A DNA stretch of 43,639 nucleotides, from IMG/VR virus record IMGVR_UViG_2617270952_000006; one strand, 5' to 3'. Numbering within the stretch: the stretch's first letter is position 1; each line of letters opens with the position of its first letter. The DNA comes from a virus. Its lineage: Duplodnaviria; Heunggongvirae; Uroviricota; Caudoviricetes. The notes beneath the pieces were generated by a model. That model saw only the letters and a list, made by a program, of their open reading frames with translations, was not told where the DNA came from and ran no database searches. Of this stretch, positions 2,954 through 43,639 are shown piece after piece. The position numbers and the translations under genes were made by a program.

Positions 2954-3028
2954 GTCCTCTTAGTTAAATGGATATAACGAGCCCCTCCTAAGGGCTAATT
3001 GCAGGTTCGATTCCTGCAGGGGACACCA
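2954..3028 (+). tRNA. argW: tRNA-Arg (anticodon CCU)
   Basis: 75-nt sequence gtcctcttagttaaatggatataacgagcccctcctaagggctaattgcaggttcgattcctgcaggggacacca with anticodon loop ctCCTaa and 3' terminal CCA-like end; known integration site for Sf6/CUS-3/KplE1-type prophages. Confidence 0.9.
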
Positions 3029-3189
3029 TTTATCAGTTCGCTCCCATCCGTACCAGTCCGCAAAATCCCCTGAATATCAAGCCTTCCGTAGATTCACAGT
3101 TCGTAATGGTTCGCGTCAGATCGTTGACAGCCGCACTCCATGACGGGTAAAAAGTGGATAAAATAATTTTACCCACCGGATTTTTACCC

Positions 3190-4347
3190 ATGCTCACCGT
3201 TAAGCAGATTGAAGCAGCAAAGCCGAAAGAAAAACCATACCGCCTACTCGATGGTAATGGCCTGTACCTTTATGTCCCTGTGTCAGGGAAAAAGGTATGG
3301 CAGCTTCGCTACAAGATTGACGGTAAGGAGAAAATCCTGACCGTAGGAAAATATCCGCTAATGACTTTGCAGGAGGCAAGAGATAAAGCATGGACCGCGA
3401 GGAAAGACATCTCGGTTGGCATCGATCCGGTAAAAGCGAAAAAGGCTTCGTCTAACAACAATTCCTTTAGTGCAATTTACAAGGAATGGTACGAACACAA
3501 GAAGCAAGTCTGGTCAGTAGGGTATGCGACTGAACTTGCAAAAATGTTTGATGACGACATTTTACCCATCATCGGCGGTCTTGAGATTCAGGATATTGAG
3601 CCGATGCAACTGCTGGAAGTAATCCGCAGATTTGAAGATCGCGGTGCAATGGAGCGAGCCAACAAAGCCCGCAGAAGATGCGGCGAGGTTTTCCGTTACG
3701 CTATTGTCACTGGTAGGGCTAAATATAACCCGGCACCTGACCTTGCAGACGCCATGAAAGGATACCGCAAGAAGAACTTCCCGTTTCTTCCTGCAGACCA
3801 GATCCCTGCATTCAACAAAGCACTGGCAACATTTTCAGGAAGCATCGTATCGCTCATTGCGACCAAAGTTTTACGCTACACAGCCCTAAGAACGAAAGAG
3901 CTTCGTTCCATGCAATGGAAGAACGTCGATTTTGAAAACAGGATTATCACTATCGACGCCAGTGTGATGAAGGGCCGCAAGATTCATGTTGTTCCTATGT
4001 CAGACCAGGTGGTTGAACTTCTCACTACGCTAAGCTCCATCACTAAACCAGTATCAGAGTTTGTTTTTGCCGGGCGCAACGATAAGAAGAAGCCAATCTG
4101 CGAGAACGCGGTATTGCTTGTTATCAAACAAATCGGCTATGAGGGTCTGGAAAGCGGTCACGGATTCAGGCATGAATTCAGCACAATTATGAACGAGCAC
4201 GAATGGCCTGCTGACGCTATTGAAGTGCAACTGGCACATGCCAACGGCGGATCTGTGCGTGGAATTTACAACCATGCTCAGTATCTCGATAAGCGCAGAG
4301 AAATGATGCAGTGGTGGGCGGACTGGCTTGATGAAAAGGGGGAGTGA
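3190..4347 (+). CDS. intS: Tyrosine integrase, P4 family (IntS-like)
   Basis: 385-aa product from ATG 3190 (ORF track extends to 3154 from GTG); N-terminal arm-binding domain and C-terminal catalytic region (..HGFRHEF..LAHANG..RGIYNHAQY); immediately downstream of argW as in E. coli K-12 KplE1/CPS-53. Confidence 0.9.
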   Translation: MLTVKQIEAAKPKEKPYRLLDGNGLYLYVPVSGKKVWQLRYKIDGKEKILTVGKYPLMTLQEARDKAWTARKDISVGIDPVKAKKASSNNNSFSAIYKEWYEHKKQVWSVGYATELAKMFDDDILPIIGGLEIQDIEPMQLLEVIRRFEDRGAMERANKARRRCGEVFRYAIVTGRAKYNPAPDLADAMKGYRKKNFPFLPADQIPAFNKALATFSGSIVSLIATKVLRYTALRTKELRSMQWKNVDFENRIITIDASVMKGRKIHVVPMSDQVVELLTTLSSITKPVSEFVFAGRNDKKKPICENAVLLVIKQIGYEGLESGHGFRHEFSTIMNEHEWPADAIEVQLAHANGGSVRGIYNHAQYLDKRREMMQWWADWLDEKGE

Positions 4348-4438
4348 CCAACCTTAACCACTATCGGATAGTACAAAGCTTTGCAATCCAGACAAGGCTT
4401 TGTTTTGTCTAAGTTTGGTCACATTAGATGTGAAATCT

Positions 4439-6451
4439 TCAAATCAGCCCATAAATAACATTATGCAAATGAAGAGAGCCTGCTTCACCGGAAACATCAA
4501 AATCAATCCTAACTTTGCTTGCTCCAGGAGGAACAATATCTATTAATGCGTAGAAATTCCATGTGGAGCCTGATGGAATTGTAAATGTTGCTTTTCCCTG
4601 AACAGAGTTCCCTTCTTTATCAAAAAACTCAATACCAGAGATTGTTGTCACTTGATTCTTAGCCCAAAAACCTAACTGGAAATATCGTCCTGGTGAGCAG
4701 TCTGAGCACTCCTGATAAAATTTTGCAGATGCTCCTATAGATGGTATTGCTACATACAAAGACCTGGAAAACATAATATCATTTGGAACATCAGAATCCG
4801 TTCCTGCTGTAACAACACCTGAACCAGTTTGTTGAAGGCTCCAGTTAGAGTAGTTTAAAAACTGTCCACTTCCATTTGATAGCGAATTTATGTATGGACT
4901 AACTATGTTCCCTTTATCCCACTGAGTTGTTATAAATCCAGATCGTGGATAGCATCCATATGACATTATTTTTTTACTATTACCTCCAACTACCTGTCTA
5001 GTTGCTGATCCTGTCGCCAAATCCATTTGGTCAAATAAAGGCAATGAGCAATTTGTTAATGAAAGTACTGAATCATCATTTACAACAAACGGAACTGAAC
5101 TATATCCAGAGGGAGTAAGTAGCGTTGTATCTTTAATGCTTATTCTTGTGCTTCCAGATGCAGAGAACGCCACAAAGCTTTGACCTGGCTGAAACTCAAT
5201 ATTTCCACTTGAGTAAACAACGGTTGCGTTATCTTCAATAAAAACAGTAGAATCAAAATAACCTTCTTTCTTACCTGCTGGCATAGAGCAACAGTTAAAA
5301 ATAAATTGACCATTTCTAATTGTCAATGGACCTCCATTATCAACAACCCAACAATTATTAAATGTCATTACCTCGCCTGAGTTTGATGGAGAATTAAATA
5401 TAATTGTGTTGTTTAGACATCTTGATATTGTTACTTTGTCAAATAAAATTCTATATGAATTATCAAGAAACTCAATTCCAGCAGATGATATGAATGAAGA
5501 ATTACTTATTCTTAACTCTGATAATTCACCAGTGCCAATACCTCCAAGTAAAATCTTTTTAGATCCTAGCATCTTAAAAGATATGCCATCTAAAATTGAT
5601 GTTGCATTTATTTCATCCCTATTATCATAAGAAATATTAGAGTTACTTAACCTAATTGCATAATCACCTGATATCCCATTAATCTCAGTTAAAACGCATT
5701 TATTCGATCCTCTTAACCCACCTTTCGCGAAATCAATATCAATTAAAGACGAGAATTCTCCACTACATGGAACAACGCAATCATAACCTAGAGAGTTTAT
5801 TTTATTAATAAATAATGCAATATCCCCAGCGCCGCTGTAACCAGCGTCATATACAGAAAACTCAAGGCTTGGGTTTATTCTCTTCCAATTTACACCGTTA
5901 CCTTCTAAAACCATTACGTTATCAACTGCAATTGACTTGTCTACAGCTACAACAAACCCACCACCAAGTTCGAGTCCGGATACGTATGATTTTAAATATA
6001 ATTTATCAGATATCGACATTCCTTGTATATCTTTAAGGGAGTTAGCGCTCTCTACCATTCCAATGTATTTGTATCCAATATTACTTGATAGTTTTATAGA
6101 TAACTGATCAGGATCATACTTCAGCACATTAGGAAAATAGAACTGCTGCGCACCGTACGCATCATAAACAGCCATAGAATGGCCTTGCACGGTTACGAAT
6201 TTGGCAATCTGTCCGTTATATACCGGGTAACCAGCAGCGTTAATGATGATTGGTTGCGATACAGGAACGTGAGAACCGTCTTCGTTCTCTACATAAACCT
6301 GAATCTGGTTTTCAGGATTTACCGGGTCAGTGTCAATTTTTCCGATATAAATTTTGCCATTGGCATTTGCTTTAAACGAGCGAGCTAAAGTAAATAACTG
6401 ACTTGGTTGTGAAACAACAACGTTGTATAATTGTTCTGGCATAATAAACAT
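4439..6451 (-). CDS. Tailspike protein: P22 gp9-like N-terminal head-binding domain fused to a distinct beta-helix receptor-binding/depolymerase domain
   Basis: N-terminal ~110 aa align with P22 tailspike (..NVVVS.P...F...[34 protein letters not shown]....P.IINAAG...YNGQ......VQGHSMA.YDA.G.Q......NVLKYDPDQ); remainder is N/S/G-rich repeat-like sequence typical of parallel beta-helix; visibly A+T-rich. Confidence 0.85.
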
Positions 6452-6464
6452 TCCGGAGAAAATA

Positions 6465-6965
6465 ATGAGTAAGAGACGTCACGAGGTAGTAACTCGGGAG
6501 CGCCTTATGGAGGTTCTCGATTACAATAAAGAAACAGGAATTTTCACTTGGAAAAAGAAATTAAGCGCCAGAGGTGCTGTTGGGAAAGTTGCTGGCACAA
6601 TTTCTTATGGATATAACGCAATTAATATTGATGGCGTAAGATATTTTGCACATAGACTTGCCTGGCTGTATGTATATGGCGAATGGCCCAAACAAGAGAT
6701 TGACCACATTGATAGAAACAGAAGAAATAACGCAATCTCAAACCTTAGGGATGTCAGCAGAGTCGTAAATGCATTAAATGTCGGACCTCGAAATAGCAAT
6801 GCTGGAATCAAGGGGGTAACTTTCTGTCAAGCCAGAAATCAATGGCAAGCTCAGATAAATGTCTCAGGTAAAAACATAACCCTTGGGAGATTCAACACCA
6901 TTGATGAAGCGGCTATAGCTTATAAGGCAGCAAACATGGTTGCTGACCATCTGTTGAGTAGGTAA
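6465..6965 (+). CDS. HNH endonuclease with C-terminal AP2-like DNA-binding domain (free-standing homing-endonuclease type)
   Basis: Motifs ..[17 protein letters not shown].. (HNH) and ..[40 protein letters not shown].. (AP2-like); ATG 6465 preceded by GGAG RBS; A+T-rich; opposite strand to flanking late genes. Confidence 0.7.
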
Positions 6966-7075: not shown

Positions 7076-8011
7076 TCAGTAGTTATGTACTGAAGGAGGT
7101 AATTCTTTATTCTTAAGTCTCATCCATGCGGAAAGATTCGTTGGTCCGTCTGGCTCATTAATATCAACATCTCGTGTGCGATTGATTAAAACGTCTCTCG
7201 CCATTCCGATAACATACGAGAACTCATGACCGTAGTCGTAGCATCTGCCTGAATAGTTCGATTGAATTTGTTTTAGCGCCGGATACAGTTCGCGGAATAA
7301 TGCCTGTGAGCGGTTGGCATAATCCCATAACCATACAAGGCTGTTTACTTCTTTTGCAGAAAGCTCGTTGGTTTTCTTCTCTTGTTTGCCAATGAACTCA
7401 CCTTCAAGTGGAACTCGAGCTGCAAGTGATAGTGCTTCGGTAAACTGCTCCTCACTGATTTCTTTGTATGAACATCCAAAATGGGATTTCAGTGACGACC
7501 ACATGGTGATCATCGCCTTAGCCTGTTTTTCCTTTGGCAGAGACTGACCGCGACTCATGACGAGTTGTTTAATGGCTTCCTGCTGTTCAGTGGTGATTTT
7601 ACCCGGCAACGCCTTTTTAGCTTTGCGCGGGTTAACTACATGGCCTTTAGTCCAGTAGTCATGCAGCACGCTAAAGCATTCCTCCTGGTACTGAATCAGT
7701 TTATCGCGGATGTCAGCACGAACTTTCTCAGGGTTGATGCTGAACAGCCATCCATTTAACTTCTTCAAAGGAAGGCAGAGTAGCTTACGAAGCTTTCCAT
7801 CAGCAGCAACCATATTCATATGAATACATTTGAACTTATCTAGTTGTTTCATAAGTTTTTGTTGCTGAGTACCCCAGCTCATTCCGAGGTTTTCAACGAT
7901 TGGCTTCATCGCAACATATGCAACTCCGGCAGCCATGGCGGTGATAATTTGCTGACCGTTGAATGGTACGTAAGAGGTGTTCACTGCTTCTAAAATTGCT
8001 ATACTATTCAT
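7076..8011 (-). CDS. ant: Antirepressor Ant (P22 immI-type)
   Basis: Large ORF immediately downstream of arc on the same strand; start taken at ATG 8011 ([17 protein letters not shown]..); ORF track extends to a GTG at 8077 that overlaps the upstream ORF. Confidence 0.7.
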
Positions 8012-8073
8012 GTTGGTTTTTCTCCACGGATTTACTGACAACCGAAGCCCTGACTGTTCCCGCAGTTGGGGCT

Positions 8074-8256
8074 TCACTGTTTTATGTTCACATCTAACAT
8101 TGTTTTTCTAGAATTTAACTCTTTCCCCATCGCTTCAACGCAAAGAGATACACAACTACTACAGATAAATATCTCTGCTTTAGCGCGAATCAACATTGCA
8201 CATTCATGCTGAGGCTTTCCGCAGAAGGAGCACTTAAAGCCATCTTCTTTATTCAT
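8074..8256 (-). CDS. 60-aa protein with ClpX-type C4 zinc-ribbon (ZBD-like) motif
   Basis: [43 protein letters not shown].. parallels the ClpX N-terminal zinc-binding domain (CSFCGK.QHE..LI......IC..CV.LC); start ATG overlaps arc stop (ATGA); preceded by GGGGGTGG RBS. Confidence 0.6.
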
Positions 8257-8405
8257 ATCGCCACCCCCTCTTTCTTCAGGCTGTCTATCAGGCGCTTGAT
8301 AACCTCTGAGTTAAACGACCTGCACTCTTCCTTTGCCCTGCTACCGATAGCATCCTTTAACGACTGCGGCATCCTTACCAAAATCTTACTTATTTCTTTC
8401 TCCAT
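8253..8405 (-). CDS. arc: Arc-like ribbon-helix-helix repressor
   Basis: 50-aa product [50 protein letters not shown]; RHH signature (..RSFNSE..) as in P22 Arc; GGAGGG RBS upstream of ATG 8405. Confidence 0.7.
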   Translation of the reverse strand: MEKEISKILVRMPQSLKDAIGSRAKEECRSFNSEVIKRLIDSLKKEGVAI

Positions 8406-8519
8406 GTTACCCTCCACACAAACAACTCTTTTCGAATACAAAAGATAGCAAAGTGAGTATATCTAGTCAAAATTTTTTTGCATACACTTTGATATCAAAT
8501 TGAATACCAAAGGTGTGTT
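8406..8519. promoter_or_regulatory. Divergent mnt/arc control region (Pant/Pmnt analog) containing a perfect 12-bp palindrome TTTGATATCAAA at 8488-8499
   Basis: Intergenic region between divergently oriented RHH repressor genes; palindrome seen directly; A+T-rich. Confidence 0.4.
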
Positions 8520-8768
8520 ATGGCAAAGGGTGTGTCAATTTCTCCAACTACGGTAAGAATCCCTGAATCTTTACGCGAGGCTCTTGCTGTTAGAGCATCA
8601 AAAAATGGTCGCTCTGTTAACTCCGAGATCGTCATGATTTTGCAAGCCGCGATTGATGAAGATAGGTCGCCAAAGTCAGTTGAGTCATTTGCTCAGCAAG
8701 AAGCTGACAAATTCAAAGAGGCGCTGCTGGAGACGCTGAAAACCATGTATGGTAAGGATGATAAATAA
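8520..8768 (+). CDS. mnt: Mnt-like ribbon-helix-helix repressor
   Basis: 82-aa product with N-terminal RHH (..RIPESLREALAVRASKNGRSVNSEIV..) and C-terminal helical region, divergent from arc as in P22 immI. Confidence 0.75.
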   Translation: MAKGVSISPTTVRIPESLREALAVRASKNGRSVNSEIVMILQAAIDEDRSPKSVESFAQQEADKFKEALLETLKTMYGKDDK

Positions 8769-9304
8769 TGCTGCACACAATTCATTTCTTATGCCCCGTT
8801 AACACCGCCACTGTTGGGCAACTTCAGAACCACTGTCTCACCGCATTATCTCAAGGCGCAACTGAATTAAATATCCATATATCAAGTCAGGGAGGGGAAA
8901 CTGCCGCTGGTTTTACTGCGTATAACTTTCTTAAGTCACTCCCTGTTACCGTTAGAACTCACAACATAAGCAATGTTGAATCCATAGCTAATATCGTTTT
9001 CCTGGCTGGCTCAGAACGTTTCGCAAACCCATTATCAAGATTCCTGTTACATCCTCTATTATGGGGCTTTGCCTCCCCAGCCGCCGACCATGCCAGACTG
9101 AGAGAGTACGGGAAATGCCTCGATAACGATCTTGATCGCTTCGTTGAGACGTTCAATATCGACATCGGAACCCATATTAGGTGGGCATCCCTGATAGCAG
9201 ACTCGACCATTTTGGATGCTAACAAGGCTCTTGAGCATGGCATAATTAATTCCATAAAAACTGCAAGGCTGGCATCCAATCAGGCAAACTGGTGGGTTGT
9301 TTGA
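8768..9304 (+). CDS. ClpP-family (peptidase S14-like) serine peptidase homolog
   Basis: By-eye alignment to E. coli ClpP: IHISSQGGETAAG vs INSPGGVITAG; NVESIANIVFLAGSERFANPLSRFLLHPL vs [31 protein letters not shown] (candidate Ser and His aligned); start ATG overlaps mnt stop (TAATG). Confidence 0.65.
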   Translation: MLHTIHFLCPVNTATVGQLQNHCLTALSQGATELNIHISSQGGETAAGFTAYNFLKSLPVTVRTHNISNVESIANIVFLAGSERFANPLSRFLLHPLLWGFASPAADHARLREYGKCLDNDLDRFVETFNIDIGTHIRWASLIADSTILDANKALEHGIINSIKTARLASNQANWWVV

Positions 9305-9360
9305 TGGGTAAATCATGATTACTCCTTATAAAAAACCCACCTGACGGTGGGGTTCATTTC

Positions 9361-9780
9361 TTAATCTTGCTTCGTGGAAGGTATAAGAGATGCATTTGCC
9401 TCTTTTGGCTTCAATGTATACATCCCACCATTAAATGGATCAACAGCAAGCCAACCAATTAACCCACCAAACACAAGGTTTCCACCAATATACCAACCAT
9501 TAGCATTGGCTTTGATTGGCAGGGTAACTGGTTCGTACCCATCCTTCTCCATAGTGATCTGGTAGCTCTTTTTGCCAAAATAGCTACCATCTGACTTGGC
9601 GAGTGTTACACCTTGTGGAGTCTTACCTTGCGCAACAATCACACCCGATTCATCTTTTACCTTAAAGCTCGCGCCAGAAGGATTGCTGTTCACTTGCACA
9701 AGTTGCGTTTCATCACCAACAATAGTTGCGCACCCAGATAACATGATAACGCCAGCAACGACGCTAATAATCCTCTTCAT
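9361..9780 (-). CDS. Lipoprotein with PEGA-like domain and C-terminal glycine-zipper hydrophobic segment
   Basis: Signal peptide with lipobox (MKRIISVVAGVIMLSGC); PEGA-like stretch (..VQVNSNPSGASFKV..GKTPQGVTL..DGYEP..); C-terminal ..WYIGGNLVFGGLIGWLAV..; A+T-rich. Confidence 0.55.
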   Translation of the reverse strand: MKRIISVVAGVIMLSGCATIVGDETQLVQVNSNPSGASFKVKDESGVIVAQGKTPQGVTLAKSDGSYFGKKSYQITMEKDGYEPVTLPIKANANGWYIGGNLVFGGLIGWLAVDPFNGGMYTLKPKEANASLIPSTKQD

Positions 9781-9897
9781 ATCAATTTCCATATTTAAAA
9801 AACCGGAAACATCCTAATGACAAAACATTCAAATGTGAAGTAGGCAAAAGATGTTTACTTTTTTCATGGTATCCTGCTCAAAACTAAGGAGGTTGGT

Positions 9898-10125
9898 GTG
9901 AAGCGATGGTTCCTCATAATTACTGTTTTCGCGATCATTTACACTATTTTCCCTGCATTAAAAGCACCAATGCAAATAATTTCACTAGCAATAATTTCGA
10001 TTGGTGCTTTCATTGCAGTAGCCGTACTTGTGTTTAAGGTTTTAAAGTTTTTAGTTTGGCTATCAAAAGATGATGGATGCAAAGTTCATCAAGAAAAAGA
10101 AGGCAAAATAACCAAAGTTGACTAA
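9898..10125 (+). CDS. Small predicted 2-TM membrane protein
   Basis: 75-aa product with two hydrophobic helices; GTG start 7 nt after AAGGAGG RBS. Confidence 0.45.
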   Translation: MKRWFLIITVFAIIYTIFPALKAPMQIISLAIISIGAFIAVAVLVFKVLKFLVWLSKDDGCKVHQEKEGKITKVD

Positions 10126-34469: not shown

Positions 34470-34471
34470 AA

Positions 34472-34744: not shown

Positions 34745-34766
34745 ATAATTACCTCGTTGGATGTTA

Positions 34767-35395: not shown

Positions 35396-35506
35396 ATGCC
35401 CTCCATAGTAACCATGAAACAATAATACGATATGTACTTTTAGAATGCAAACAAAAAATACATCTTGTGCATGGATGGTTTTAGTACAGAGCGTAATAAT
35501 AAGGGT
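35396..35506. promoter_or_regulatory. OR region: divergent pR/pRM with operator copy at 35422-35440
   Basis: Minus-strand reading gives -35 TTGCAT, 17-nt spacer, -10 TATTAT before cro; 19-bp motif AAAGTACATATCGTATTAT nearly identical to the pL operator copy. Confidence 0.45.
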
Positions 35507-36166: not shown

Positions 36167-36198
36167 CAGCCTCACCACTCTAAAACACACAACAATAA

Positions 36199-36226
36199 CC
36201 CGACCTTAGCGTCGGGTTTTCTTTTT
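36199..36226 (+). terminator. Rho-independent terminator downstream of cI
   Basis: Hairpin cccgac-cttagc-gtcggg followed by ttttcttttt. Confidence 0.5.
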
Positions 36227-36291
36227 CCAAAATATAAACCCATTAAATACAAAGCGTTATAAAAAACTAATTATATTTAGAACATTTTGTA

Positions 36292-36320
36292 TTGACTCGA
36301 TAAAGTACAAATCGTACTAT
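36292..36320 (+). promoter_or_regulatory. pL promoter with overlapping operator (OL)
   Basis: -35 TTGACT (36292-36297), 17-nt spacer, -10 TACTAT (36315-36320); 19-bp motif AAAGTACAAATCGTACTAT (36302-36320) shared with OR. Confidence 0.5.
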
Positions 36321-36359
36321 TTAGCCATCAGCAGGACGCACTGACCACCATGAAGGTGA

Positions 36360-36390
36360 TGCTCTTAAAAATTAAGCCCTGAAGAAGGGC
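36360..36390 (+). promoter_or_regulatory. nutL site (boxA plus boxB hairpin)
   Basis: tgctcttaaaaattaa followed by gccctgaagaagggc, matching lambda nutL boxA/boxB. Confidence 0.7.
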
Positions 36391-36562
36391 AACCTTCAAA
36401 GCAGAAGGCTTTGGGGTGTGGTGAAGGGTTCATGGATGGGAATATGTCGCACGTAAAGCGGCGAGGCCTGCGGAACTATTGCCGAATTGAAGTCGGCCGA
36501 AGCAGGTCGAAATGGGTCTCCCACCTACCACACCACCAAAGCTAACTGACAGGAGAATCCAG

Positions 36563-36889
36563 ATGGATGCACAAACACGCCGCCGCGAACGTCGCGCAGA
36601 GAAACAGGCTCAATGGAAAGCAGCAAATCCCCTGTTGGTTGGGGTAAGCGCAAAACCAGTTAACCGCCCTATTCTCTCGCTGAATCGCAAACCGAAATCA
36701 CGAGTAGAAAGCGCACTGAATCCGATAGACCTTACAGTGCTGGCTGAATACCACGAACAGATTGAAAGCAACCTGCAACGTATTGAGCGCAAGAATCAGC
36801 GCACATGGTACAGCAAGCCACGCAGTGAAATGGGTGTAACTTGTGTTGGTCGCCAGAAAATGAAATTAGGCAGTAAACCACTTATTTGA
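36563..36889 (+). CDS. N: Antiterminator N (lambda-type)
   Basis: Product MDAQTRRRERRAEKQAQWKAANPLLVGVSAKPVNRPILSLNRKPKSRVESALNPIDLTVLAEYHEQIESNLQRIERKNQRTWYSKP.. recognised as lambda N with arginine-rich motif; AGGAG RBS. Confidence 0.85.
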   Translation: MDAQTRRRERRAEKQAQWKAANPLLVGVSAKPVNRPILSLNRKPKSRVESALNPIDLTVLAEYHEQIESNLQRIERKNQRTWYSKPRSEMGVTCVGRQKMKLGSKPLI

Positions 36890-36897
36890 GGTGAGAT

Positions 36898-37221
36898 ATG
36901 GAAGCATTAGTAGTAGAGCGAAGCGAGGATGGCTACTGGACGCACCCAGAATACGCCAACCTGTTTGGGGATAGAGAGGTAATTTCAGCTGATGAGTTCA
37001 GATCTTTCTGCAAGCAGCATGGCATTGAATCATCAATTGTTGAAATGGAAAACGACAACAATCAAACGGTAATTGACGCGTATTTTGAAGATGGGAATCA
37101 AAACATCAGTGGATGGGAGCCAAGCATGCCAGATGGAGAAGGATGGTTTGTCGGTTCGATTCACGATACAGAAGACGGTCCGATCTGCGTTTGGTTCAGG
37201 AATGTAGATAAGGCCGAATAG
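36898..37221 (+). CDS. Acidic 107-aa hypothetical protein immediately downstream of N
   Basis: Strongly D/E-rich product; GGTGAG RBS; stop codon sits in the loop of a terminator hairpin. Confidence 0.6.
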   Translation: MEALVVERSEDGYWTHPEYANLFGDREVISADEFRSFCKQHGIESSIVEMENDNNQTVIDAYFEDGNQNISGWEPSMPDGEGWFVGSIHDTEDGPICVWFRNVDKAE

Positions 37222-37236
37222 TCGGCCTTTATTTTT
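37212..37236 (+). terminator. Rho-independent terminator (tL1-like)
   Basis: Hairpin ggccga-atag-tcggcc followed by tttattttt. Confidence 0.55.
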
Positions 37237-37355
37237 GGCATAAACAACAGAATAAACACTGCACTGTGTATTCATTCCAACGAGTGAATACACGGAGCAA
37301 TGTCGCTCGTAACTAAACAGGAGCCGACTTGTTCTGATTATTGGAAATCTTCTTT

Positions 37356-37381
37356 GCCCTCCAATGTGAGGGCATTTTTTT
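37356..37381 (+). terminator. Second rho-independent terminator upstream of the 322-aa gene
   Basis: Hairpin gccctc-caatgt-gagggc followed by 8-nt T-run. Confidence 0.55.
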
Positions 37382-37393
37382 GATGGAGGATAT

Positions 37394-38362
37394 ATGAGTG
37401 AAGTAACAGATTTAGTTGTTATTGAAAAAGCAAATGCAATGACTGTATTTCAGTCTGCCGACCAGATTGAAGAAATCCTTCAAAAGGTTGAACGTGAAGT
37501 TATGTCCTTTGTGCCTGATATCACAACGGCAAAGGGCAGAAAGGAGATCGCTTCTCTGGCGTATAAAGTTGCGCAGACGAAAACATATCTCGATGGTCTT
37601 GGCAAAGACCTTGTTGCTGAACTGAAGGAAATTCCAAAGCTAATTGATGCTAACCGCAAGACAGTGCGTGATCGCCTTGATGAGCTGAAAGCCAAGGCGC
37701 GCCAGCCTCTTACTGATTATGAGGAAGAACAGGCGCGGATTAAAGCCGAAGAAGAAGCTAAGGCAGCAGCTGAAGCTCTCGCAAAGCAAATTGAGTCTGA
37801 CCATGAAATAGCTATTTTGATGGATCGCGAATTTGACCGCCAAAGAGAAGAGGCAAGACTCAAAGCGGAGCAGGAAAAGCGAGAGCATGAAGAACGATTA
37901 AAAAGAGAAGCTGAAGAGAAAGCCAGAGCAGAAGCCGAAGCAAAGGCAAAAGCCGAAATTGAAGCAGCAGCAAGGCGAGAAGCAGAAGCTAAGGCCGCAG
38001 CGGAACGTGCAGAGCGTGAACGCATTGAAGCCGAGCAACGAGCACAGCGCGAAGCAAAAGAGGCAGCAGAACGAGCTGAAAGAGAAAAGCAGGCAGCAAT
38101 TGAAGCAGAACGCAGAAAAGCACAGGAGGAGGCTGAACGAATCCGTCGCGAGGCTGAAGCAAAAGAGCAAGCCAGAATAGCAGAAGAAAAAAGAATCAAG
38201 GACGAAGAAGAGCGTAGAGCAAAGGATAAAGCTCACCGGAAAGAAGTAAATAACAAAATACTTGCTGACCTTATCAAGGTTGGCGCATCAGAAGATGTTG
38301 CTAAAAATATCATAACAGCCATCGTAAAAGGCGAAGTATTCGCAACAAAAATAACCTACTAA
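37394..38362 (+). CDS. Hypothetical 322-aa protein with N-terminal globular region and long E/A/K/R-rich coiled-coil-like low-complexity region
   Basis: Central ~150 aa are almost purely E/A/K/R (..EAEEKARAEAEAKAKAEIEAAARREAEAKAAAERAERE..), resembling TolA domain II-type helices; GGAGGA RBS. Confidence 0.65.
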   Translation: MSEVTDLVVIEKANAMTVFQSADQIEEILQKVEREVMSFVPDITTAKGRKEIASLAYKVAQTKTYLDGLGKDLVAELKEIPKLIDANRKTVRDRLDELKAKARQPLTDYEEEQARIKAEEEAKAAAEALAKQIESDHEIAILMDREFDRQREEARLKAEQEKREHEERLKREAEEKARAEAEAKAKAEIEAAARREAEAKAAAERAERERIEAEQRAQREAKEAAERAEREKQAAIEAERRKAQEEAERIRREAEAKEQARIAEEKRIKDEEERRAKDKAHRKEVNNKILADLIKVGASEDVAKNIITAIVKGEVFATKITY

Positions 38363-38386
38363 TAAAACCAACATAAGGAACCACCC

Positions 38387-38518
38387 ATGATTTACGCAAT
38401 CGCGGGAGGCGCTCGCATGGGTGCCTTCCAACTAAATGAATCTTTACTTGAACGAATCACCCGTAAATTGCGTGACGGATGGAAAAGAGTTGAGGTCTTA
38501 TTATGCGCAATGAAATAG
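38387..38518 (+). CDS. cIII: CIII-like protease inhibitor (43 aa; below ORF-track size cutoff)
   Basis: Translation MIYAIAGGARMGAFQLNESLLERITRKLRDGWKRVEVLLCAMK shares the ESLLERITRKLRDGWKR core with lambda CIII; AAGGAA RBS. Confidence 0.7.
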   Translation: MIYAIAGGARMGAFQLNESLLERITRKLRDGWKRVEVLLCAMK

Positions 38519-38655
38519 CCATCAATCACCAGATGCTTCGTGCAGCACAAAACAAAGCAGTAATAGCCAGATTTATTGGTGATTCAAAAATGTGGCTTGA
38601 AGCAAATAAAGCGATGAAATCAGCTATCAACCTTCCGTGGTATCGCAGGAAATGA
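38503..38655 (+). CDS. kil: Kil-like host cell-division inhibitor (50 aa)
   Basis: Translation MRNEIAINHQMLRAAQNKAVIARFIGDSKMWLEANKAMKSAINLPWYRRK; core ..IA.FIGD.KM..EA.. resembles lambda Kil; overlaps cIII 3' end. Confidence 0.6.
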   Translation: MRNEIAINHQMLRAAQNKAVIARFIGDSKMWLEANKAMKSAINLPWYRRK

Positions 38656-38822
38656 GTTTTACAGATAACTGGTCAGACGAAGAATTCATTCGTCAGATGA
38701 AAGAATTAATCGGTAACGAAGGAGATATTCATGTCACTTGCAACCACAGTGAAGGAGAGCAAGTTACAGAGACGCATGTACACGCAGCAGGCGTTAATGT
38801 ATCGCCAGAAGGGAGATCGTGA
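38652..38822 (+). CDS. Candidate small acidic protein (56 aa), frame A
   Basis: ATG overlaps kil stop (ATGA); MSFTDNWSDEEFIRQMKELIGNEGDIH..; overlaps alternative frame B by ~90 nt, so only one may be real. Confidence 0.3.
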   Translation: MSFTDNWSDEEFIRQMKELIGNEGDIHVTCNHSEGEQVTETHVHAAGVNVSPEGRS

Positions 38823-38901
38823 AGGTGTTCGCGTATTTTTAAATGCGGCAAAGACTGAAGTATTAAATCAGCGTTATTTCCTTGGGCCATGTCCATTCTG
38901 A
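38731..38901 (+). CDS. Candidate small basic protein (56 aa), frame B (Arf-like position before erf)
   Basis: ATG 38731 with GGAG RBS 6 nt upstream; MSLATTVKESKLQRRMYTQQALMYRQKGDREGVRVFLNAAK..; ends 10 nt before erf. Confidence 0.3.
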   Translation: MSLATTVKESKLQRRMYTQQALMYRQKGDREGVRVFLNAAKTEVLNQRYFLGPCPF

Positions 38902-38911
38902 GAACAATCAT

Positions 38912-39517
38912 ATGAGCAAAGAATTTTACGCAAGACTGGCAGCTATTCAGGAGAATCTGAACGCGCCAAAGAATCAGTACAACTCATTCGGCAAATATAA
39001 ATACAGAAGCTGCGAAGACATTCTTGAAAGCGTTAAGCCGTTACTGAATGGCCTGTTTTTATCAATCAGCGATGAAGTTGTGTTGATTGGTGATCGGTAT
39101 TACGTGAAAGCCACGGCAACTATTACCGATGGCGAAAACAGTCATACGGCAACCGCTCTTGCACGAGAGGAAGAAAGCAAGAAAGGAATGGATTCTGCAC
39201 AAGTTACGGGAGCTACAAGCTCTTATGCACGCAAGTATTGCCTCAATGGTTTATTCGGCATTGATGATGCGAAAGATGCAGATACCGACGAGCATAAACA
39301 TCAGCAGAACGCAGCAGCAAAGCAATCAAAACCATCACCTACGCCTGAACAGGTTCTAAAAGCATTCACTGACGCAGCAATGCAGAAAAACACCGTGGAA
39401 GAGCTTAAACAGGCGTTCGCCAAAGCGTGGAAGATGCTCGAAGGCACACCGGAGCAGCACAAAGCGCAGGACGTTTACAACATCAGACGAGACGAATTAG
39501 AAGGGGCAACTGCTTAA
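38912..39517 (+). CDS. erf: Erf single-strand annealing recombinase (P22 Erf-like)
   Basis: Product MSKEFYARLAAIQENLNAPKNQYNSFGKYKYRSCEDILESVKPLLNGLFLSISDEVVLIGDRYYVKATATITDGENSH.. recognised as P22 Erf. Confidence 0.9.
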   Translation: MSKEFYARLAAIQENLNAPKNQYNSFGKYKYRSCEDILESVKPLLNGLFLSISDEVVLIGDRYYVKATATITDGENSHTATALAREEESKKGMDSAQVTGATSSYARKYCLNGLFGIDDAKDADTDEHKHQQNAAAKQSKPSPTPEQVLKAFTDAAMQKNTVEELKQAFAKAWKMLEGTPEQHKAQDVYNIRRDELEGATA

Positions 39518-39900
39518 TGGCACATTCGATTACAGTAAGACTAAACAAGCCCGCAAGAGAGTTTCAGGCCGGGGAAAATATCGGATTCAACATCCGTGCT
39601 GGCGTTCAGTATTACGATCGCCAGACAAAAAAGAAAGAATGGACAAACTACAGCGCCGTTGTATTTGCCAAGCCGGGAGCGCAAGCGGATTACTACCGTA
39701 GTGTTCTTGTTGAAGGTGGCATTGTGGAAATTACCGGAGAAAACATCAGGGTAGATGTTTATCAGGGGCAAAATGGTCAATCAATCACTCTTGAATTACT
39801 GAATGCAAAGATTGGATTTGCAACTTCAGGAAACAGCCAACAGCAGCAAAGTAGCAATCATCAAAATCATCCTGAATACGACGATTCAATCCCCTTCTAG
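39517..39900 (+). CDS. Phage SSB-like protein with acidic C-terminal tip
   Basis: 127-aa product from ATG overlapping erf stop; ends ..PEYDDSIPF, the hallmark SSB C-terminal motif; Q/S-rich linker before it. Confidence 0.65.
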   Translation: MAHSITVRLNKPAREFQAGENIGFNIRAGVQYYDRQTKKKEWTNYSAVVFAKPGAQADYYRSVLVEGGIVEITGENIRVDVYQGQNGQSITLELLNAKIGFATSGNSQQQQSSNHQNHPEYDDSIPF

Positions 39901-39923
39901 ATTAGCAAAATAAGGATTCCATT

Positions 39924-40217
39924 ATGCCAGCGCCTCTGTATGGTGCGGATGACCCGCGCCGCTGTTCCGGCAATTCCGTATCGGAGGTGCTGGATAAATT
40001 CAGAAAAAACTACGATCGGATAATGTCGCTACCGCAGGAAACGAAAGAGGAAAAGGAATTTCGCCACTGCATATGGCTTGCAGAGAAAGAAGAGCGCGAG
40101 CGAATTTACCAGACATCAATCCGACCATTCCGCAAAGCCACATATACCCACTTCCCTGAAATTGACCCGCGCCTGCGTAATTACCGCTCACGTTATGGCG
40201 CTATCAGTAATGACTGA
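39924..40217 (+). CDS. Hypothetical protein (97 aa)
   Basis: ORF with AAGGA RBS 6 nt upstream of ATG. Confidence 0.5.
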
Positions 40218-40395
40218 GGAATTTACCATGAGAGGACTTGCATACAATCCCGGCATTCTTCCGGCAGAAATGATTATTCGCCAACGCGTAAAGCCAATGC
40301 CATCGAGAGAGGAATTGCTTAAGAGAAATTCTTTTCCATCAGTGAATCAAAACAAATATCTGAATGCGATGTGGCGCAAAGGAGGCAACCAGTGA
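40210..40395 (+). CDS. Hypothetical protein (61 aa)
   Basis: ATG overlaps upstream stop (ATGA); ORF track lists a longer in-frame version from 40078. Confidence 0.4.
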
Positions 40396-41054
40396 GCAAG
40401 ATTAACTATCAGGCACTACGTGATGCGGCAGAAAAGGCAACACAGGGTGAATGGGTCGCATTTATTTCGCCGGGCAAATACGGCACGTACGCCGTACACA
40501 CACCAGGTGATAATCATCACGGAGATATTGTCGACTGGCCAGGATTCGACGAACAGAAAAACGCAGAGAACAACGCTCGTTATATCGCAGCTTTCAACCC
40601 TGAAGTAGTGCAGGCGCTGCTGGATGAACGGGAAAGAAACCAGCAATACATCAAATCACGCGACAAGGAGAACGAGGAAATTGCGCTAACGGTAGGGAAG
40701 CTGCGTGTTGAGCTGGAAGCCGCAGAGAAGCGCAACGCAAAATTACAAAGCGAGAATGCATACATCCGCAACCGGTTCAAAGAACTGGACCTGTTAATCG
40801 GGAAAAACATTCTGGTCATGCAGGCTGCCATTATCGAATGGCAGGCAACTGGCGACGCTAAGAGCGGACTGGCATGGATTTATAACACACTGTTTGGCCC
40901 TGGCGAATTACCGGACGAATCTGAGAAAGATGCTCAGGCCTACTTTAATCGCAAATATGCACCGATTGACGAAAAGCTTATGGAGCTTCACAAGTGGTTT
41001 TGGGAACAAAGTGAAGCCGAGCGCGCTGCTGGTATTCGCATCAAAGGAGAGTGA
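40392..41054 (+). CDS. Ead/Ea22-like family protein
   Basis: Start assigned to GTG 40392 (6 nt after GGAGG RBS; ORF track starts 40371); coiled-coil-containing product of a type common in lambdoid early-left regions. Confidence 0.55.
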
Positions 41055-41055
41055 T

Positions 41056-41622
41056 ATGAGCGCTATAACCAAAGAACGTATCGAATTATTCATTAAAAAT
41101 CCGCTTGATAACGGACTTACCCGTGGCGAACAAATGGAACTGGCACGAATTGCACTGGCATCACTGGCAGCAGTATCGGATGAACGAGCAGCCTATGAAT
41201 TATTTATGGAGAAGCGTTTCGGGGAATCTGTAGATCGCCGCAGGGCGAAAAATGGCGATAGAGAATACATGGCATGGGATATGGCGCTTGGCTGGATTAT
41301 CTGGTGTCACCGCGCCGCCATGCTTCAGACTGGAAACTTTCGGGAAAATAAGGATTCGTCAACCAATAATTTTCGGGAAACCTCGGAAACGTCAACCAAC
41401 TCTCCGGTAACTCCGGATAGTTGGATAAGCTGTAGTGAGCGGATGCCAGAGGACGGTCAGCACGTAATTATTTTATGTGATGGCGCATTCGTTCTTTATG
41501 CGCAATATCGAGACGGTGAGTTTTTTGATGTCGTCCGCAATGGTGAGGAGTTCTTCGAAACGCAGAGCCGCAATGTAACCGACTGGATGCCTCTACCAGA
41601 ACCGCCGCAGGAGGTGAAGTGA
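41056..41622 (+). CDS. DUF551-domain phage protein
   Basis: C-terminal region ..WISCSERMPEDGQHVIILCDGAFVLYAQYRDGEFFDVVRNGEEFFETQSRNVTDWMPLPEPP.. fits DUF551; AAGGAGA RBS; contains short internal tandem repeat. Confidence 0.6.
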   Translation: MSAITKERIELFIKNPLDNGLTRGEQMELARIALASLAAVSDERAAYELFMEKRFGESVDRRRAKNGDREYMAWDMALGWIIWCHRAAMLQTGNFRENKDSSTNNFRETSETSTNSPVTPDSWISCSERMPEDGQHVIILCDGAFVLYAQYRDGEFFDVVRNGEEFFETQSRNVTDWMPLPEPPQEVK

Positions 41623-41900
41623 TGGACTCCTTCGCGAAATATACGATCATTGACTGGATAGCATTCCTTCAGGTTTTGCTCATCTGGTTTTATATGGCTT
41701 ACAGGAGTGGGCAGTGGATTGTCAACATGGCCTGTAGCAGGGGATGGCGTTGGTGGAACCGAAAGAATAAAAAAGCACTGGCATTGGATTCGTTTTACGA
41801 AGCATTCAATCTTAACAGCCTTCAGCCTGGTTCTGTCATTGTAGTCACCACTCAAAGCGGCATGACCATTCAGATTCATAAACCAAAAGAGGAAAAATGA
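41622..41900 (+). CDS. Hypothetical small membrane protein (92 aa)
   Basis: ATG overlaps DUF551 stop; one hydrophobic helix (..IIDWIAFLQVLLIWFYMAY..). Confidence 0.45.
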   Translation: MDSFAKYTIIDWIAFLQVLLIWFYMAYRSGQWIVNMACSRGWRWWNRKNKKALALDSFYEAFNLNSLQPGSVIVVTTQSGMTIQIHKPKEEK

Positions 41901-41986
41901 TGTGGCCTATATGTGTTAATTGCGGACGGATGTGCCTATCTGGATGGTGCCGAAAGTGCGACAAATGCACGAAGCAAAGACAATAA
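41897..41986 (+). CDS. Candidate 29-aa Cys-rich mini-ORF (zinc-ribbon-like)
   Basis: MMWPICVNCGRMCLSGWCRKCDKCTKQRQ; ATG overlaps upstream stop; followed by hairpin/T-tract. Confidence 0.3.
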   Translation: MMWPICVNCGRMCLSGWCRKCDKCTKQRQ

Positions 41987-42028
41987 CAATCCTCGCACTC
42001 GCGGGGATTTCTTTTATATGGGGATAAT

Positions 42029-42829
42029 ATGACCATCCACTTTCACGGCAGCCCAATATGGGGTGATGAGCATGCCCCTACAGATATGCTGATTAAAGCC
42101 CTTTACCGTGATGGTGGGGCTTTTGTTTCATTTGCCAGACCAGAGCAGATGAAAAAGATTGCCATGTTCCCTTGTGATATACGCCTTGATAACGGTGCTT
42201 TTAGCGACTGGATGAAAGCATTAAAGAAAGGCACTCCGGTAGACTGGAGTAAGAGACGAGCAAAATTCTACGACTTTGTTGGGACGTGGTTCAGCAGAAT
42301 TGAATGGTTTCTTATACCTGACGTTATCGAAGGGACAGAGGCAGAAAACGACGAGCAGATTGAGTTGGTTCCTGATTGGCTAAAATCAAAAGCGGTTCCG
42401 GTCTGGCATACCGACGAATCAATTGAACGTCTTTTACGCCTTTCTGGCAAATTTGAATGGGTGGCGATTGGATGCTGCGGCCCACACAGGCACATACGCT
42501 CTAAATGGTGGGAACAGAGAATGGATGAAGTTTTTACTGAGATTTATATCAATCGTAATTTGAAAGTGAAAATTCATGGTCTTCGAATGCTCGACGTGAG
42601 AGTTCTTGGTATGTATCCGTTCGCCAGTGCGGATTCTACTAATGTTGCTGTTAACGTACCGAAGACAGAGAAGCGATTTCCTGAGATTACCGACAAACTG
42701 GCACGTACAGCTGTACTTCGCGCAGCTATTGAAAAGGTGCACCCACCATCGATATCAGCATGGGTAGACAGAAAGAGGAGAGAGCCGGCGCAAGCCGGTT
42801 TTTTATTTGAATTCACCGACGCCGCTTAA
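42029..42829 (+). CDS. Hypothetical 266-aa protein (moron-like cassette)
   Basis: Stand-alone ORF bounded on both sides by hairpin/T-tract elements; no motif confidently recognised. Confidence 0.6.
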   Translation: MTIHFHGSPIWGDEHAPTDMLIKALYRDGGAFVSFARPEQMKKIAMFPCDIRLDNGAFSDWMKALKKGTPVDWSKRRAKFYDFVGTWFSRIEWFLIPDVIEGTEAENDEQIELVPDWLKSKAVPVWHTDESIERLLRLSGKFEWVAIGCCGPHRHIRSKWWEQRMDEVFTEIYINRNLKVKIHGLRMLDVRVLGMYPFASADSTNVAVNVPKTEKRFPEITDKLARTAVLRAAIEKVHPPSISAWVDRKRREPAQAGFLFEFTDAA

Positions 42830-42886
42830 TGCGGATTTCTTTTATCTGAACTCGCTACGGCGGGTTTTGTTTTATGGAGATGATAA

Positions 42887-43054
42887 ATGCACTTCCGAGT
42901 CACAGGTGAATGGAATGGAGAGCCATTCAACAGGGTTATCGAAGCAGAGGACATCAACGACTGCTATAACCACTGGATGATATGGGCGCAGATAGCGCAT
43001 GCAGACGTAACCAATATTCGAATTGAAGAACTGAAAGAACACCAAGACGCCTGA
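42887..43054 (+). CDS. Candidate 55-aa protein (below ORF-track cutoff)
   Basis: ATG 42887 preceded by GGAG; MHFRVTGEWNGEPFNRVIEAEDINDCYNHWMIWAQIAHADVTNIRIEELKEHQDA. Confidence 0.35.
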   Translation: MHFRVTGEWNGEPFNRVIEAEDINDCYNHWMIWAQIAHADVTNIRIEELKEHQDA

Positions 43055-43078
43055 TGGCGGTTTTTTTGGGGGTAGTAG

Positions 43079-43294
43079 ATGGCTGCAATTCACATTGTAT
43101 CAATAACATGCAATGCAATTCAGATAGTTGCTTGCATTATCTTTGTTTTCTCAATCCTTCGCTCCCGACGATATTCTCCAGCAATTAACCGACATCCTGC
43201 ACAAGTTGAAGCCGTCAGGATGGCTATAGAGCTACGAAATGAGATGAATAAGGCATTAATGGAGATGGAGAAACCATTCACTGACAAACATTAA
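43079..43294 (+). CDS. Hypothetical small membrane protein (71 aa)
   Basis: N-terminal hydrophobic helix (..IVSITCNAIQIVACIIFVFSIL..). Confidence 0.4.
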   Translation: MAAIHIVSITCNAIQIVACIIFVFSILRSRRYSPAINRHPAQVEAVRMAIELRNEMNKALMEMEKPFTDKH

Positions 43295-43372
43295 GAGTGG
43301 AAATAAAGAAATCACACCGCCTCACACTCGATGAGGCATTTTCATTTATCAAGATATCCAGACCTACCATCG

Positions 43373-43394
43373 CCGCATCAATGCGGTTTTTTTA
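43373..43394 (+). terminator. Rho-independent terminator upstream of excisionase gene
   Basis: Hairpin ccgcat-ca-atgcgg followed by 7-nt T-run. Confidence 0.5.
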
Positions 43395-43438
43395 TTGCCT
43401 GATTTGCAGGTTTGATTCCCTATTTGGAGATAGCACTC

Positions 43439-43639
43439 ATGCAACACGAACTACAGCCTGATTCACTGGTTGATTTGAAATTCATCATGGCCGATACTGG
43501 CTTCGGTAAAACCTTCATCTATGACCGGATTAAGTCCGGCGACCTGCCTAAAGCCAAAGTTATCCACGGACGAGCAAGATGGTTATATCGTGACCATTGT
43601 GAATTCAAAAATAAGCTCTTAAGCCGCGCCAATGGGTAA
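43439..43639 (+). CDS. torI: Excisionase / recombination directionality factor, AlpA-TorI family
   Basis: 66-aa product MQHELQPDSLVDLKFIMADTGFGKTFIYDRIKSGDLPKAKVIHGRARWLYRDHCEFKNKLLSRANG recognised as TorI-like (KplE1 excisionase); stop at window end. Confidence 0.8.
   Translation: MQHELQPDSLVDLKFIMADTGFGKTFIYDRIKSGDLPKAKVIHGRARWLYRDHCEFKNKLLSRANG

Follow-up and report, generated by a model that had tools for sequence, protein, structure and literature searches.

RESULTS

The prophage is bounded by intS at argW and by torI next to dsdC

Here, we present an analysis of a window of 43,639 nt, in which ARAGORN detected an argW gene for tRNA-Arg(CCU) (positions 2954 to 3028, plus strand; anticodon CCT) that is identical to K-12 argW when aligned. 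The 3' end of argW carries the 16-nt attL core CTGCAGGGGACACCAT (3014 to 3029, plus strand), and the next gene is intS (3190 to 4347, plus strand), which encodes a tyrosine integrase of 385 aa with 99% identity to IntS of Escherichia coli K-12 and to Int of Sf6 and CUS-3. The same core has been published for KplE1 (PMC2951348) and is also annotated in the CUS-3 and Sf6 records. At the opposite end, torI (43439 to 43639, plus strand) encodes a recombination directionality factor (excisionase) of 66 aa that is 100% identical to K-12 TorI and Sf6 gp18. The core is present as a single copy in the window, and a search of the whole window allowing up to two mismatches gave no second one. Because the window ends exactly at the torI stop codon, attR lies outside it. 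The source contig JNMB01000022.1, which matches window positions 31056 to 43639 without a mismatch (100% identity over 12,584 bases), contains the attR core CTGCAGGGGACACCAT at 12658 to 12673, i.e., 74 nt past the torI stop codon and followed by dsdC; placed via this contig, attR has the window-equivalent coordinates 43713 to 43728. Thus, the prophage extends from 3014 to about 90 bases beyond the window end and is ~40.7 kb long. The original prediction had placed a prophage at argW with the integrase and a torI-like xis at its two ends and had called for a direct repeat of the argW 3' end downstream of xis; all of these features were found. As read on the source contig, the torI stop codon overlaps the first P-arm copy of GGGTAAAA.

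attL contains the intS promoter together with predicted TorI and IntS binding sites

Upstream of intS, GGGTAAAA is present at 3145 to 3152 (plus strand), and its complement TTTTACCC at 3167 to 3174 and 3182 to 3189, the last copy abutting the intS ATG at 3190. A degenerate fourth copy, GGATAAAA (3157 to 3164), forms an 11-nt near-palindrome with 3166 to 3176. Five exact copies of GGGTAAAA/TTTTACCC occur in the whole window compared with 1.08 expected (none of 100 shuffles reached five), and three of the five are packed into 45 bp. The inverted repeats that had been noted upstream of int are, therefore, real and enriched, except that the last copy had been given one base short, as 3183 to 3189. 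The proposal that they are binding sites for the recombinase or an accessory protein agrees with their position in the attL stretch that holds the IntS P' sites in K-12 (PMC2951348): alignment columns 201 to 261, which contain the repeats, are invariant across K-12 KplE1, Sf6, CUS-3, and EC45. TAAA is conserved among the arm-type P' sites of K-12, one of which, P'1, overlaps the −10 box (PMC2951348). We consider GGGTAAAA, GGATAAAA, and the two copies of TTTTACCC (3145 to 3189), which are conserved with K-12, as putative arm-type (P') sites of IntS.

The published TorI site motifs are GTTCG, GATCG, and GTCCG (PMC2951348), and five such pentamers lie in attL in two predicted blocks, for which the numbering I1 to I5 is our own mapping of the published description. 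Block I1;2 (3036 to 3060, plus strand) has GTTCG at 3036 to 3040 and GTCCG at 3056 to 3060 and is invariant with the K-12 attL; block I3;4;5 (3099 to 3123, plus strand) has GTTCG at 3099, GTTCG at 3109, and GATCG at 3119 with a 10-bp phasing and abuts the −35 box. The promoter PintS (3124 to 3153, plus strand; −35 TTGACA at 3124 to 3129 and −10 TAAAAA at 3148 to 3153) was assigned based on its sequence identity with K-12, where the hexamers were published as TTGACA and TAaAAa (PMC2951348); a scan for the generic sigma-70 consensus missed it because of the weak −10 box. The int promoter is overlapped by attL, and its two boxes are flanked by the TorI sites on one side and the P' sites on the other. 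Over about 260 bp, attL differs from that of K-12 KplE1 at four positions, none of which falls within the five TorI pentamers, the two promoter hexamers, or any arm-type site.

At the right end, a copy of the argW T-arm, TTGCAGGTTCGATTCC (43404 to 43419, plus strand), is located about 20 nt 5' of the torI start codon. This copy is exact (16/16 nt) in K-12, MB50, and Sf6 and has one change in the prophage described here (15/16 nt); the TorI-type pentamer within it reads GTTTG rather than the GTTCG of those three.

A syntenic set of P22-like virion genes is interrupted only by an HNH cassette

The virion genes are full length and in the order TerS-TerL-portal-scaffold-coat-gp4-gp10-gp26-gp14-gp7-gp20-gp16, all on the minus strand. 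The head gene block (17688 to 24517) comprises genes for TerS (24092 to 24517), TerL (22683 to 24095; TIGR01547), portal (20554 to 22680), scaffold (19656 to 20540), coat (18373 to 19644), a gp4-like protein, and a small ORF, with 91 to 100% full-length amino acid matches to Sf6 genes 1 to 7. The terminase family is consistent with a predicted short-tailed virion and headful (pac) packaging. The genes for the gp10-like head-closure protein (15588 to 17006), the gp26-like tail needle (14740 to 15588), and the gp14-like protein (14285 to 14740) have full-length matches among Sf6 genes 10, 9, and 8. The ejection (DNA transfer) proteins, i.e., gp7-like of 230 aa, gp20-like of 449 aa, and gp16-like of 707 aa (10122 to 14282; phrog_6704/770), match those of EC45/CUS-3 over their full length at 97 to 100%, with gp20-like and gp16-like at 99 to 100% relative to EC45. 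The Sf6-type coat-scaffold-portal block is present at ≥80% coverage in 221 of 5426 complete E. coli genomes.

The only break in this order is a 580-bp insertion (17008 to 17587) between gp4 and gp10 with an HNH/NUMOD4 homing-endonuclease gene (16954 to 17538, minus strand), which recodes gp10 at its 5' end; a truncated duplicate of that end remains upstream of the cassette (17590 to 17678, minus strand). This cassette is annotated in 18 of the 5426 E. coli genomes. A second, free-standing HNH endonuclease gene (6465 to 6965, plus strand; PF13392 and AP2, phrog_99) is divergent from the tailspike start. Both insertions lie in or beside the late operon, and an effect on late gene expression is possible.

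The tailspike of 670 aa (4439 to 6451, minus strand) has an N-terminal P22-type head-binding domain (PF09008 at residues 4 to 116, E = 2e-64) and a divergent receptor-binding part; it matches phrog_4217 over its full length, and the nearest phage record has 63% amino acid identity. An immI-type region (7076 to 8768; phrog_245 and Arc-like phrogs) encodes the antirepressor Ant (7076 to 8077, minus strand; 75 to 77% amino acid identity to CUS-3/EC45 Ant), a small ORF (8074 to 8256, minus strand), an Arc-like protein (8253 to 8441, minus strand), and a Mnt/Arc-like protein (8520 to 8768, plus strand). It is followed by a block of accessory ORFs (8768 to 10125) for a ClpP-like protease (8768 to 9304, plus strand), a phrog_6823 protein (9361 to 9792, minus strand), and a phrog_7294 protein (9898 to 10125, plus strand), among which PADLOC gave no match to defence systems.

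Lysis, replication, and regulatory genes are of lambdoid type

Beyond terS, the minus strand encodes a DUF2560 protein (24597 to 24839), a phrog_322 ORF (24943 to 25317), a Rha/ORF11CD3 regulator (25601 to 26275), and a lysis cassette (26461 to 27573) of Rz (26461 to 26910), endolysin (26895 to 27398), and holin (27370 to 27573); the Rz1 lipoprotein embedded in Rz has an intact frame with an LLVVSAC lipobox. The late antiterminator Q (28244 to 28867) and the nin region, together 28244 to 32093 on the minus strand (NinH, RusA, DUF1364, Roi, NinF, NinX, NinE, a Dam methylase at 31111 to 31638, and NinB; phrog_111), match MB50, CUS-3, and Sf6 at 96 to 100%. The DnaB-type helicase P (32149 to 33525) and the initiator O (33522 to 34469), also on the minus strand, are full-length matches to the CUS-3 pair at 99 to 100%. 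The immunity region (34767 to 36889) has cII (34767 to 35060) and cro (35180 to 35395) on the minus strand and cI (35471 to 36166) and N (36563 to 36889) on the plus strand; using Pfam on the identical source contig, cI was found to have a Peptidase_S24 domain, and its C-terminal domain is LexA-like. The early-left operon (36898 to 43294, plus strand) encodes a gene-33-like ORF, cIII, kil, Erf, an SSB-like protein, Abc2, DUF2737, Ead/Ea22, DUF551, and DUF4752 proteins, a phrog_887 protein (42029 to 42829), and two small ORFs. An ORF of 71 aa at 43079 to 43294 encodes a protein that is also found, in exact form, in unrelated lambdoid contigs with three other integrase types. Altogether, these genes form a lambdoid cI (S24, self-cleaving)/cro/cII/cIII/N/Q circuit with divergent early operons. 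The original prediction described a mosaic of lambda-type regulators and P22/Sf6-type virion genes; both are present, but they represent the ordinary make-up of P22-like lambdoid phages rather than a special mosaic.

The prophage is apparently intact

All essential genes are full length compared with the functional phages Sf6 and CUS-3, and the virion, lysis, replication, and regulatory genes each match a counterpart in Sf6, CUS-3, EC45, or MB50 end to end. No IS element and no frameshift were found inside the prophage; the only transposase in the window is an IS1 fragment at 81 to 584, outside the prophage, and we attribute the many plasmid matches of the window to it. Unlike Sf6 and EC45, the prophage has no phage tRNA genes. 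Truncations and frameshifts in essential genes, defined beforehand as the observations that would speak against a full-length prophage, were absent, and the claim of such a prophage held, with "complete" referring to sequence integrity, to which missense defects are invisible.

Function is, however, beyond proof from sequence alone, and an intact-looking prophage could be cryptic because of a missense change, a defect in regulation, or polarity exerted by the HNH insertions, while possibly still excising like KplE1. The recoded 5' end of gp10 with an HNH gene ahead of it, the second HNH gene directly upstream of the tailspike start in antisense orientation, and the GTTCG to GTTTG change upstream of torI, which is not seen in K-12, MB50, or Sf6, all fit with this idea. 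We nevertheless consider it unlikely, because all ORFs are full length and 86 to 100% identical to those of functional phages, the element lacks IS elements, stop codons, and frameshifts, and the same gp4/gp10 HNH cassette is present at 99% identity in 18 other genomes in which gp10 is annotated as intact.

Coverage of either half of the window stayed below 80% for every complete E. coli genome and phage record, and hence we do not equate the prophage with any named phage. The mosaic nature of the element, for which the best single reference covers ≤76% of either half, and its origin in a draft assembly with a contig that starts in an IS1 fragment could reflect an assembly chimera or a composite of two elements, e.g., a tandem prophage or a prophage with a satellite. 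Such an origin is highly improbable, given that there is one non-redundant phage gene set in the canonical CUS-3 order, exactly one att core within the window, a length of ~40.7 kb that is typical of the group (39.0 kb for Sf6 and 40.2 kb for CUS-3), and agreement over 12.6 kb with two independent assemblies (no mismatch to GCA_000700205.1 and one to GCA_000700185.1).

DISCUSSION

Our findings support, with a probability of roughly 85%, that the element is a temperate P22-like prophage (Lederbergvirus, Sf6/HK620/CUS-3 group) of ~40.7 kb that was integrated at the 3' end of argW by IntS. CUS-3 of E. coli K1 strain RS218 (CP000711) is also located at argW with the same 16-nt core, and has the same gene order and orientation, i.e., attL-int-tailspike-ant/mnt-virion genes-lysis-Q-nin-P-O-cII-cro and then cI-N-early left-attR; its Int, P, O, Roi, RusA, Erf, and TerL are 97 to 100% identical to those described here. 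In contrast, the tailspike of CUS-3 is an endosialidase, its cI differs, its coat, scaffold, and portal proteins are of another type (33 to 55% amino acid identity), and it carries the neuO moron but neither HNH insertion. The two also differ at the extreme right end, where the match ends at window position 43066. The CUS-3 record names no xis/torI gene. Shigella phage Sf6 (NC_005344), which is grouped with coliphage HK620, matches in its virion genes 1 to 11 over their full length at 86 to 100% amino acid identity, in Int (99%) and gp18/TorI (100%), and in the sequence of the attP core and both arms; however, its oac O-acetylase moron, endorhamnosidase tailspike, 434-like immunity region, different helicase/initiator pair, IS911 in ninG, and two tRNA genes are absent here. 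Salmonella phage P22, the type Lederbergvirus, shares the podovirus virion gene set and order, the PF09008 tailspike domain, the immI ant/arc/mnt region, and the lambdoid early region. Whereas P22 has int next to xis and integrates at thrW, the prophage described here uses argW, with int and xis separated by the attachment site. According to published work, the KplE1/Sf6/HK620/CUS-3 recombination module is characterized by int at one end of the prophage and the excisionase gene at the other.

KplE1 (CPS-53) of K-12 occupies the same argW-to-dsdC locus with the same att core, a near-identical attL, and IntS and TorI that are 99% and 100% identical, respectively. As the original prediction correctly stated, K-12 has only a degraded remnant there: 10.2 kb bounded by intS and torI, with gtr-type genes beside intS and without repressor, replication, virion, and lysis genes, while the element described here is full length. 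The binding sites and the autoregulation of intS were established experimentally in KplE1, where excision requires IntS, TorI, and IHF, and where IntS and TorI both repress PintS (PMC2951348). Based on the near-identity with KplE1, we infer that excision and PintS repression operate in the same way here; the roles given to the binding and regulatory sites are those from the K-12 experiments, the sites and proteins being identical or near-identical. According to this model, attP would lie between torI and intS on the circular phage genome, so that insertion into the argW 3' end by IntS would leave torI at one end of the prophage and intS at the other. The intS promoter, which then lies inside attL, would be kept at low activity in the lysogen by both proteins: IntS would occupy the GGGTAAAA-type arm sites, including one that overlaps the −10 box, and TorI the GTTCG-type sites adjoining the −35 box. 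Upon inactivation of the LexA-like cI repressor, torI, which ends the leftward early operon, would be expressed, and TorI, IntS, and IHF would then recombine the two 16-nt cores to excise the phage. Presumably, the prophage would also be inducible and produce virions.

We speculate that the T-arm copy upstream of torI is not a relic. Since its GTTCG-type pentamer lies inside the uncharacterized torI promoter region, it could be an operator for TorI autoregulation or, instead, indicate that attP once had a longer homology to the tRNA gene, into which torI was inserted. Either is a long shot; if correct, the GTTCG to GTTTG change would alter torI control in this prophage.

The prophage is a new mosaic member of the P22-like (Sf6/HK620/CUS-3-type) prophages but adds no new biology, because its integration machinery has already been worked out experimentally in E. 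coli K-12. Intact argW-dsdC relatives have already been documented (CUS-3, Sf6, HK620, and Kapi1), and the importance beyond annotation is small. The receptor-binding part of the tailspike is only about 63% identical to that of any sequenced phage, suggesting a possible new O-antigen specificity. At the locus where K-12 has a 10-kb remnant, this sequence-intact relative has the same integration machinery, and its practical value is to provide the well-studied IntS/TorI module in a full-length prophage of natural origin.

Results

The only tRNA gene in the window is argW, tRNA-Arg(CCU) at 2954-3028 (ARAGORN), and upstream of it lie mlaA and yfdC, whose products are 99-100% identical to E. coli proteins. 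From 3190 through the final base, the window is filled with phage DNA. Here, intS (3190-4347, plus strand) is followed by a minus-strand block in the order tailspike, ant/arc/mnt, ejection proteins, tail needle, head-completion proteins, coat, scaffold, portal, TerL, TerS, lysis cassette, Q, nin genes, P, O, cII, and cro, and then by a plus-strand block comprising cI, N, cIII, kil, erf, abc2, ea-type genes, and, last, torI (43439-43639, plus strand), the stop codon of which is the end of the window. This order and orientation match those annotated for CUS-3 (attL, int, tailspike ... early-left genes, attR). In K-12, intS and torI likewise bound a CPS-53/KplE1 remnant of 10.2 kb. Outside the prophage, the source contig opens (1-604) with a fragment of IS1 InsB (81-584), where the annotated E. 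coli prophage EC45 has yfdF; this fragment probably accounts for the thousands of plasmid matches in the first similarity search.

The window contains a single copy of the 16-nt att core CTGCAGGGGACACCAT; this copy spans 3014-3029 and overlaps the argW 3' end. Because the window stops at the torI stop codon, attR cannot lie within it. A search for proteins identical to the DUF551 protein (41056-41622) led to contig JNMB01000022.1 of assembly GCA_000700205.1, which is 100% identical to 31056-43639 of the window over 12,584 bases and is, therefore, the source of the window or its clone. The original prediction of a complete prophage at argW stated, as the main point that would speak against it, that the argW 3' end is not repeated past the excisionase gene; we found this repeat on JNMB01000022.1, where a second CTGCAGGGGACACCAT core is located 74 nt past the torI stop codon. 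Thus, the prophage spans ~40.7 kb; Sf6 measures 39.0 kb, and CUS-3 measures 40.2 kb. The attR core is followed by dsdC, dsdX, dsdA, and emrYK, the same succession that borders K-12 KplE1 on its right side.

Gene integrity was assessed by comparing the translation of every candidate gene with Sf6, CUS-3, and two annotated prophages of E. coli, EC45 and MB50; the essential genes all aligned with their counterparts from the first to the last residue. Identity to Sf6 is 91-100% for TerS, TerL, portal, scaffold, coat, and gp4, 97% for gp10, 86% for the tail needle, and 98% for gp14; gp7, gp20, and gp16 are 97-100% identical to CUS-3 or EC45. Among the regulatory and replication proteins, cI is 100% identical to that of MB50, and Q (100%), P and O (99-100%), and cIII and kil (100%) match their counterparts at the levels given. 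The lysis genes for holin, endolysin, and Rz are present with an open embedded Rz1 lipoprotein frame, and the tailspike has a P22 head-binding domain and a phrog_4217 match spanning its entire length. We saw neither a transposase nor a premature stop or frameshift within the prophage, in agreement with its predicted completeness.

An alignment of the window with the Sf6 attP arm and the attL regions of K-12 KplE1, CUS-3, and EC45 shows no variation over its final 61 columns, which run up to and into intS, and the 260-bp attL differs from that of K-12 at four positions. In K-12 attL, Panis et al. (PLoS Genet 2010; PMC2951348) described five TorI sites (GTTCG, GATCG, GTCCG) in two blocks, IntS arm-type P' sites with a common TAAA, and an intS promoter (-35 TTGACA, -10 TAaAAa) whose -10 box is overlapped by P'1; intS is repressed by IntS and by the TorI sites closest to the -35 box (PMC2951348). 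All of these elements could be located by sequence in the window. By correspondence to K-12, the TorI pentamers are at 3036, 3056, 3099, 3109, and 3119, and the -35 and -10 boxes are at 3124-3129 and 3148-3153, respectively. The repeat GGGTAAAA or its complement is found at 3145-3152, 3167-3174, and 3182-3189, with a fourth, degenerate copy at 3157-3164; window-wide, there are five copies versus 1.08 expected, and no shuffle reached five. Because the published elements all map onto the window, with the repeats falling on the K-12 IntS arm-type sites, the guess that the repeats upstream of int are recombinase binding sites was correct, and this nature is already known. Past torI on JNMB01000022.1, the P arm contains two direct copies of GGGTAAAA, the first overlapping the torI stop codon.

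A 16-nt copy of the argW T-arm (2999-3014), TTGCAGGTTCGATTCC, is located at 43404-43419, with ~20 nt between it and the torI start codon downstream. K-12, MB50, and Sf6 have the exact copy, while 15 of 16 positions are conserved in the window; no match was expected by chance, and none occurred in 100 shuffles. The copy holds a TorI-type GTTCG pentamer, which the single change in the window destroys. In the Sf6 record, a possible promoter, "pI," is annotated just upstream of the torI homologue.

Two free-standing HNH genes were observed. gp4 and gp10 are separated by a 580-bp HNH/NUMOD4 homing-endonuclease cassette (17008-17587), which has a gp10 5' end on both sides and recurs in 18 of 5426 complete E. 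coli genomes. The upstream copy (17590-17678) is Sf6-like and truncated, while the copy fused to the functional gene (16915-17006) is recoded, with about three-quarters nucleotide identity as counted from the alignment. Such a pattern is what a homing endonuclease that carries along a cleavage-resistant target should leave. The second gene (HNH plus AP2 domain; 6465-6965) separates ant from the tailspike gene, whose ATG is 13 bp away; it diverges from the tailspike gene on the opposite strand and is thus antisense to the late transcript.

Beside the immI region (8768-9792), there are two accessory ORFs, one for a 178-aa ClpP-like serine protease and one for a 143-aa phrog_6823 protein with a weak PEGA match; neither matched PADLOC defence models. 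An early-left ORF of 266 aa (42029-42829) has a full-length match to phrog_887, annotated "queuine tRNA-ribosyltransferase" (moron category); no Pfam family is on record for the identical gene on JNMB01000022.1. Directly before torI, a 71-aa phrog_15342 ORF (43079-43294) is found in identical form in lambdoid contigs from metagenomes, where its neighbours are integrases of at least three other types, and, therefore, marks an exchange boundary of the recombination module.

Discussion

Identity to the K-12 proteins is 99% for IntS and 100% for TorI, and TorI is also 100% identical to Sf6 gp18. Based on the Sf6 annotation, attP is flanked by torI and intS when the genome is circular and, consequently, integration parts the two genes to opposite ends. 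Transcription of int and the RDF gene is uncoupled in this "unusual organization" of KplE1, HK620, Sf6, and CUS-3 (PMC2951348). Because torI is the last gene of the leftward early operon, we predict that it is switched on once cI, a LexA-like Peptidase_S24 protein, is inactivated; IntS and TorI together with IHF would then excise the prophage.

Only 91 bp (4348-4438) separate intS from the tailspike stop codon; the phage, therefore, has no serotype-converting moron at this position. By contrast, Sf6 has oac here, CUS-3 neuO, EC45 a Wzy-like polymerase, and K-12 KplE1 the gtr-like yfdGHI. The receptor-binding part of the tailspike (4439-6100) has ~63% protein identity to the nearest phage record (vB_EcoM-ep3/ECOO78 depolymerase), which suggests an O-antigen specificity that may be unrepresented among sequenced phages.

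No complete E. coli genome or phage record reached 80% coverage of either half of the window, which is the usual mosaicism. The individual modules are nevertheless common: of 5426 complete E. coli genomes, 221 carry the coat-scaffold-portal block (≥80% coverage, ≥95% identity). The proposed mosaic of lambda-type regulators and P22-type virion genes is indeed present; however, it is not special to this prophage, as this combination defines P22-like lambdoid phages. A further relative integrated at argW, Kapi1, has been described.

Altogether, the argW tRNA, the intS and torI ends, the full gene set, and attR on JNMB01000022.1 confirm the original observation and support its interpretation. We conclude that, at the level of sequence, the prophage is an intact new mosaic member of the Sf6/HK620/CUS-3 group with a KplE1-type argW recombination module, the anatomy and regulation of which have already been published.
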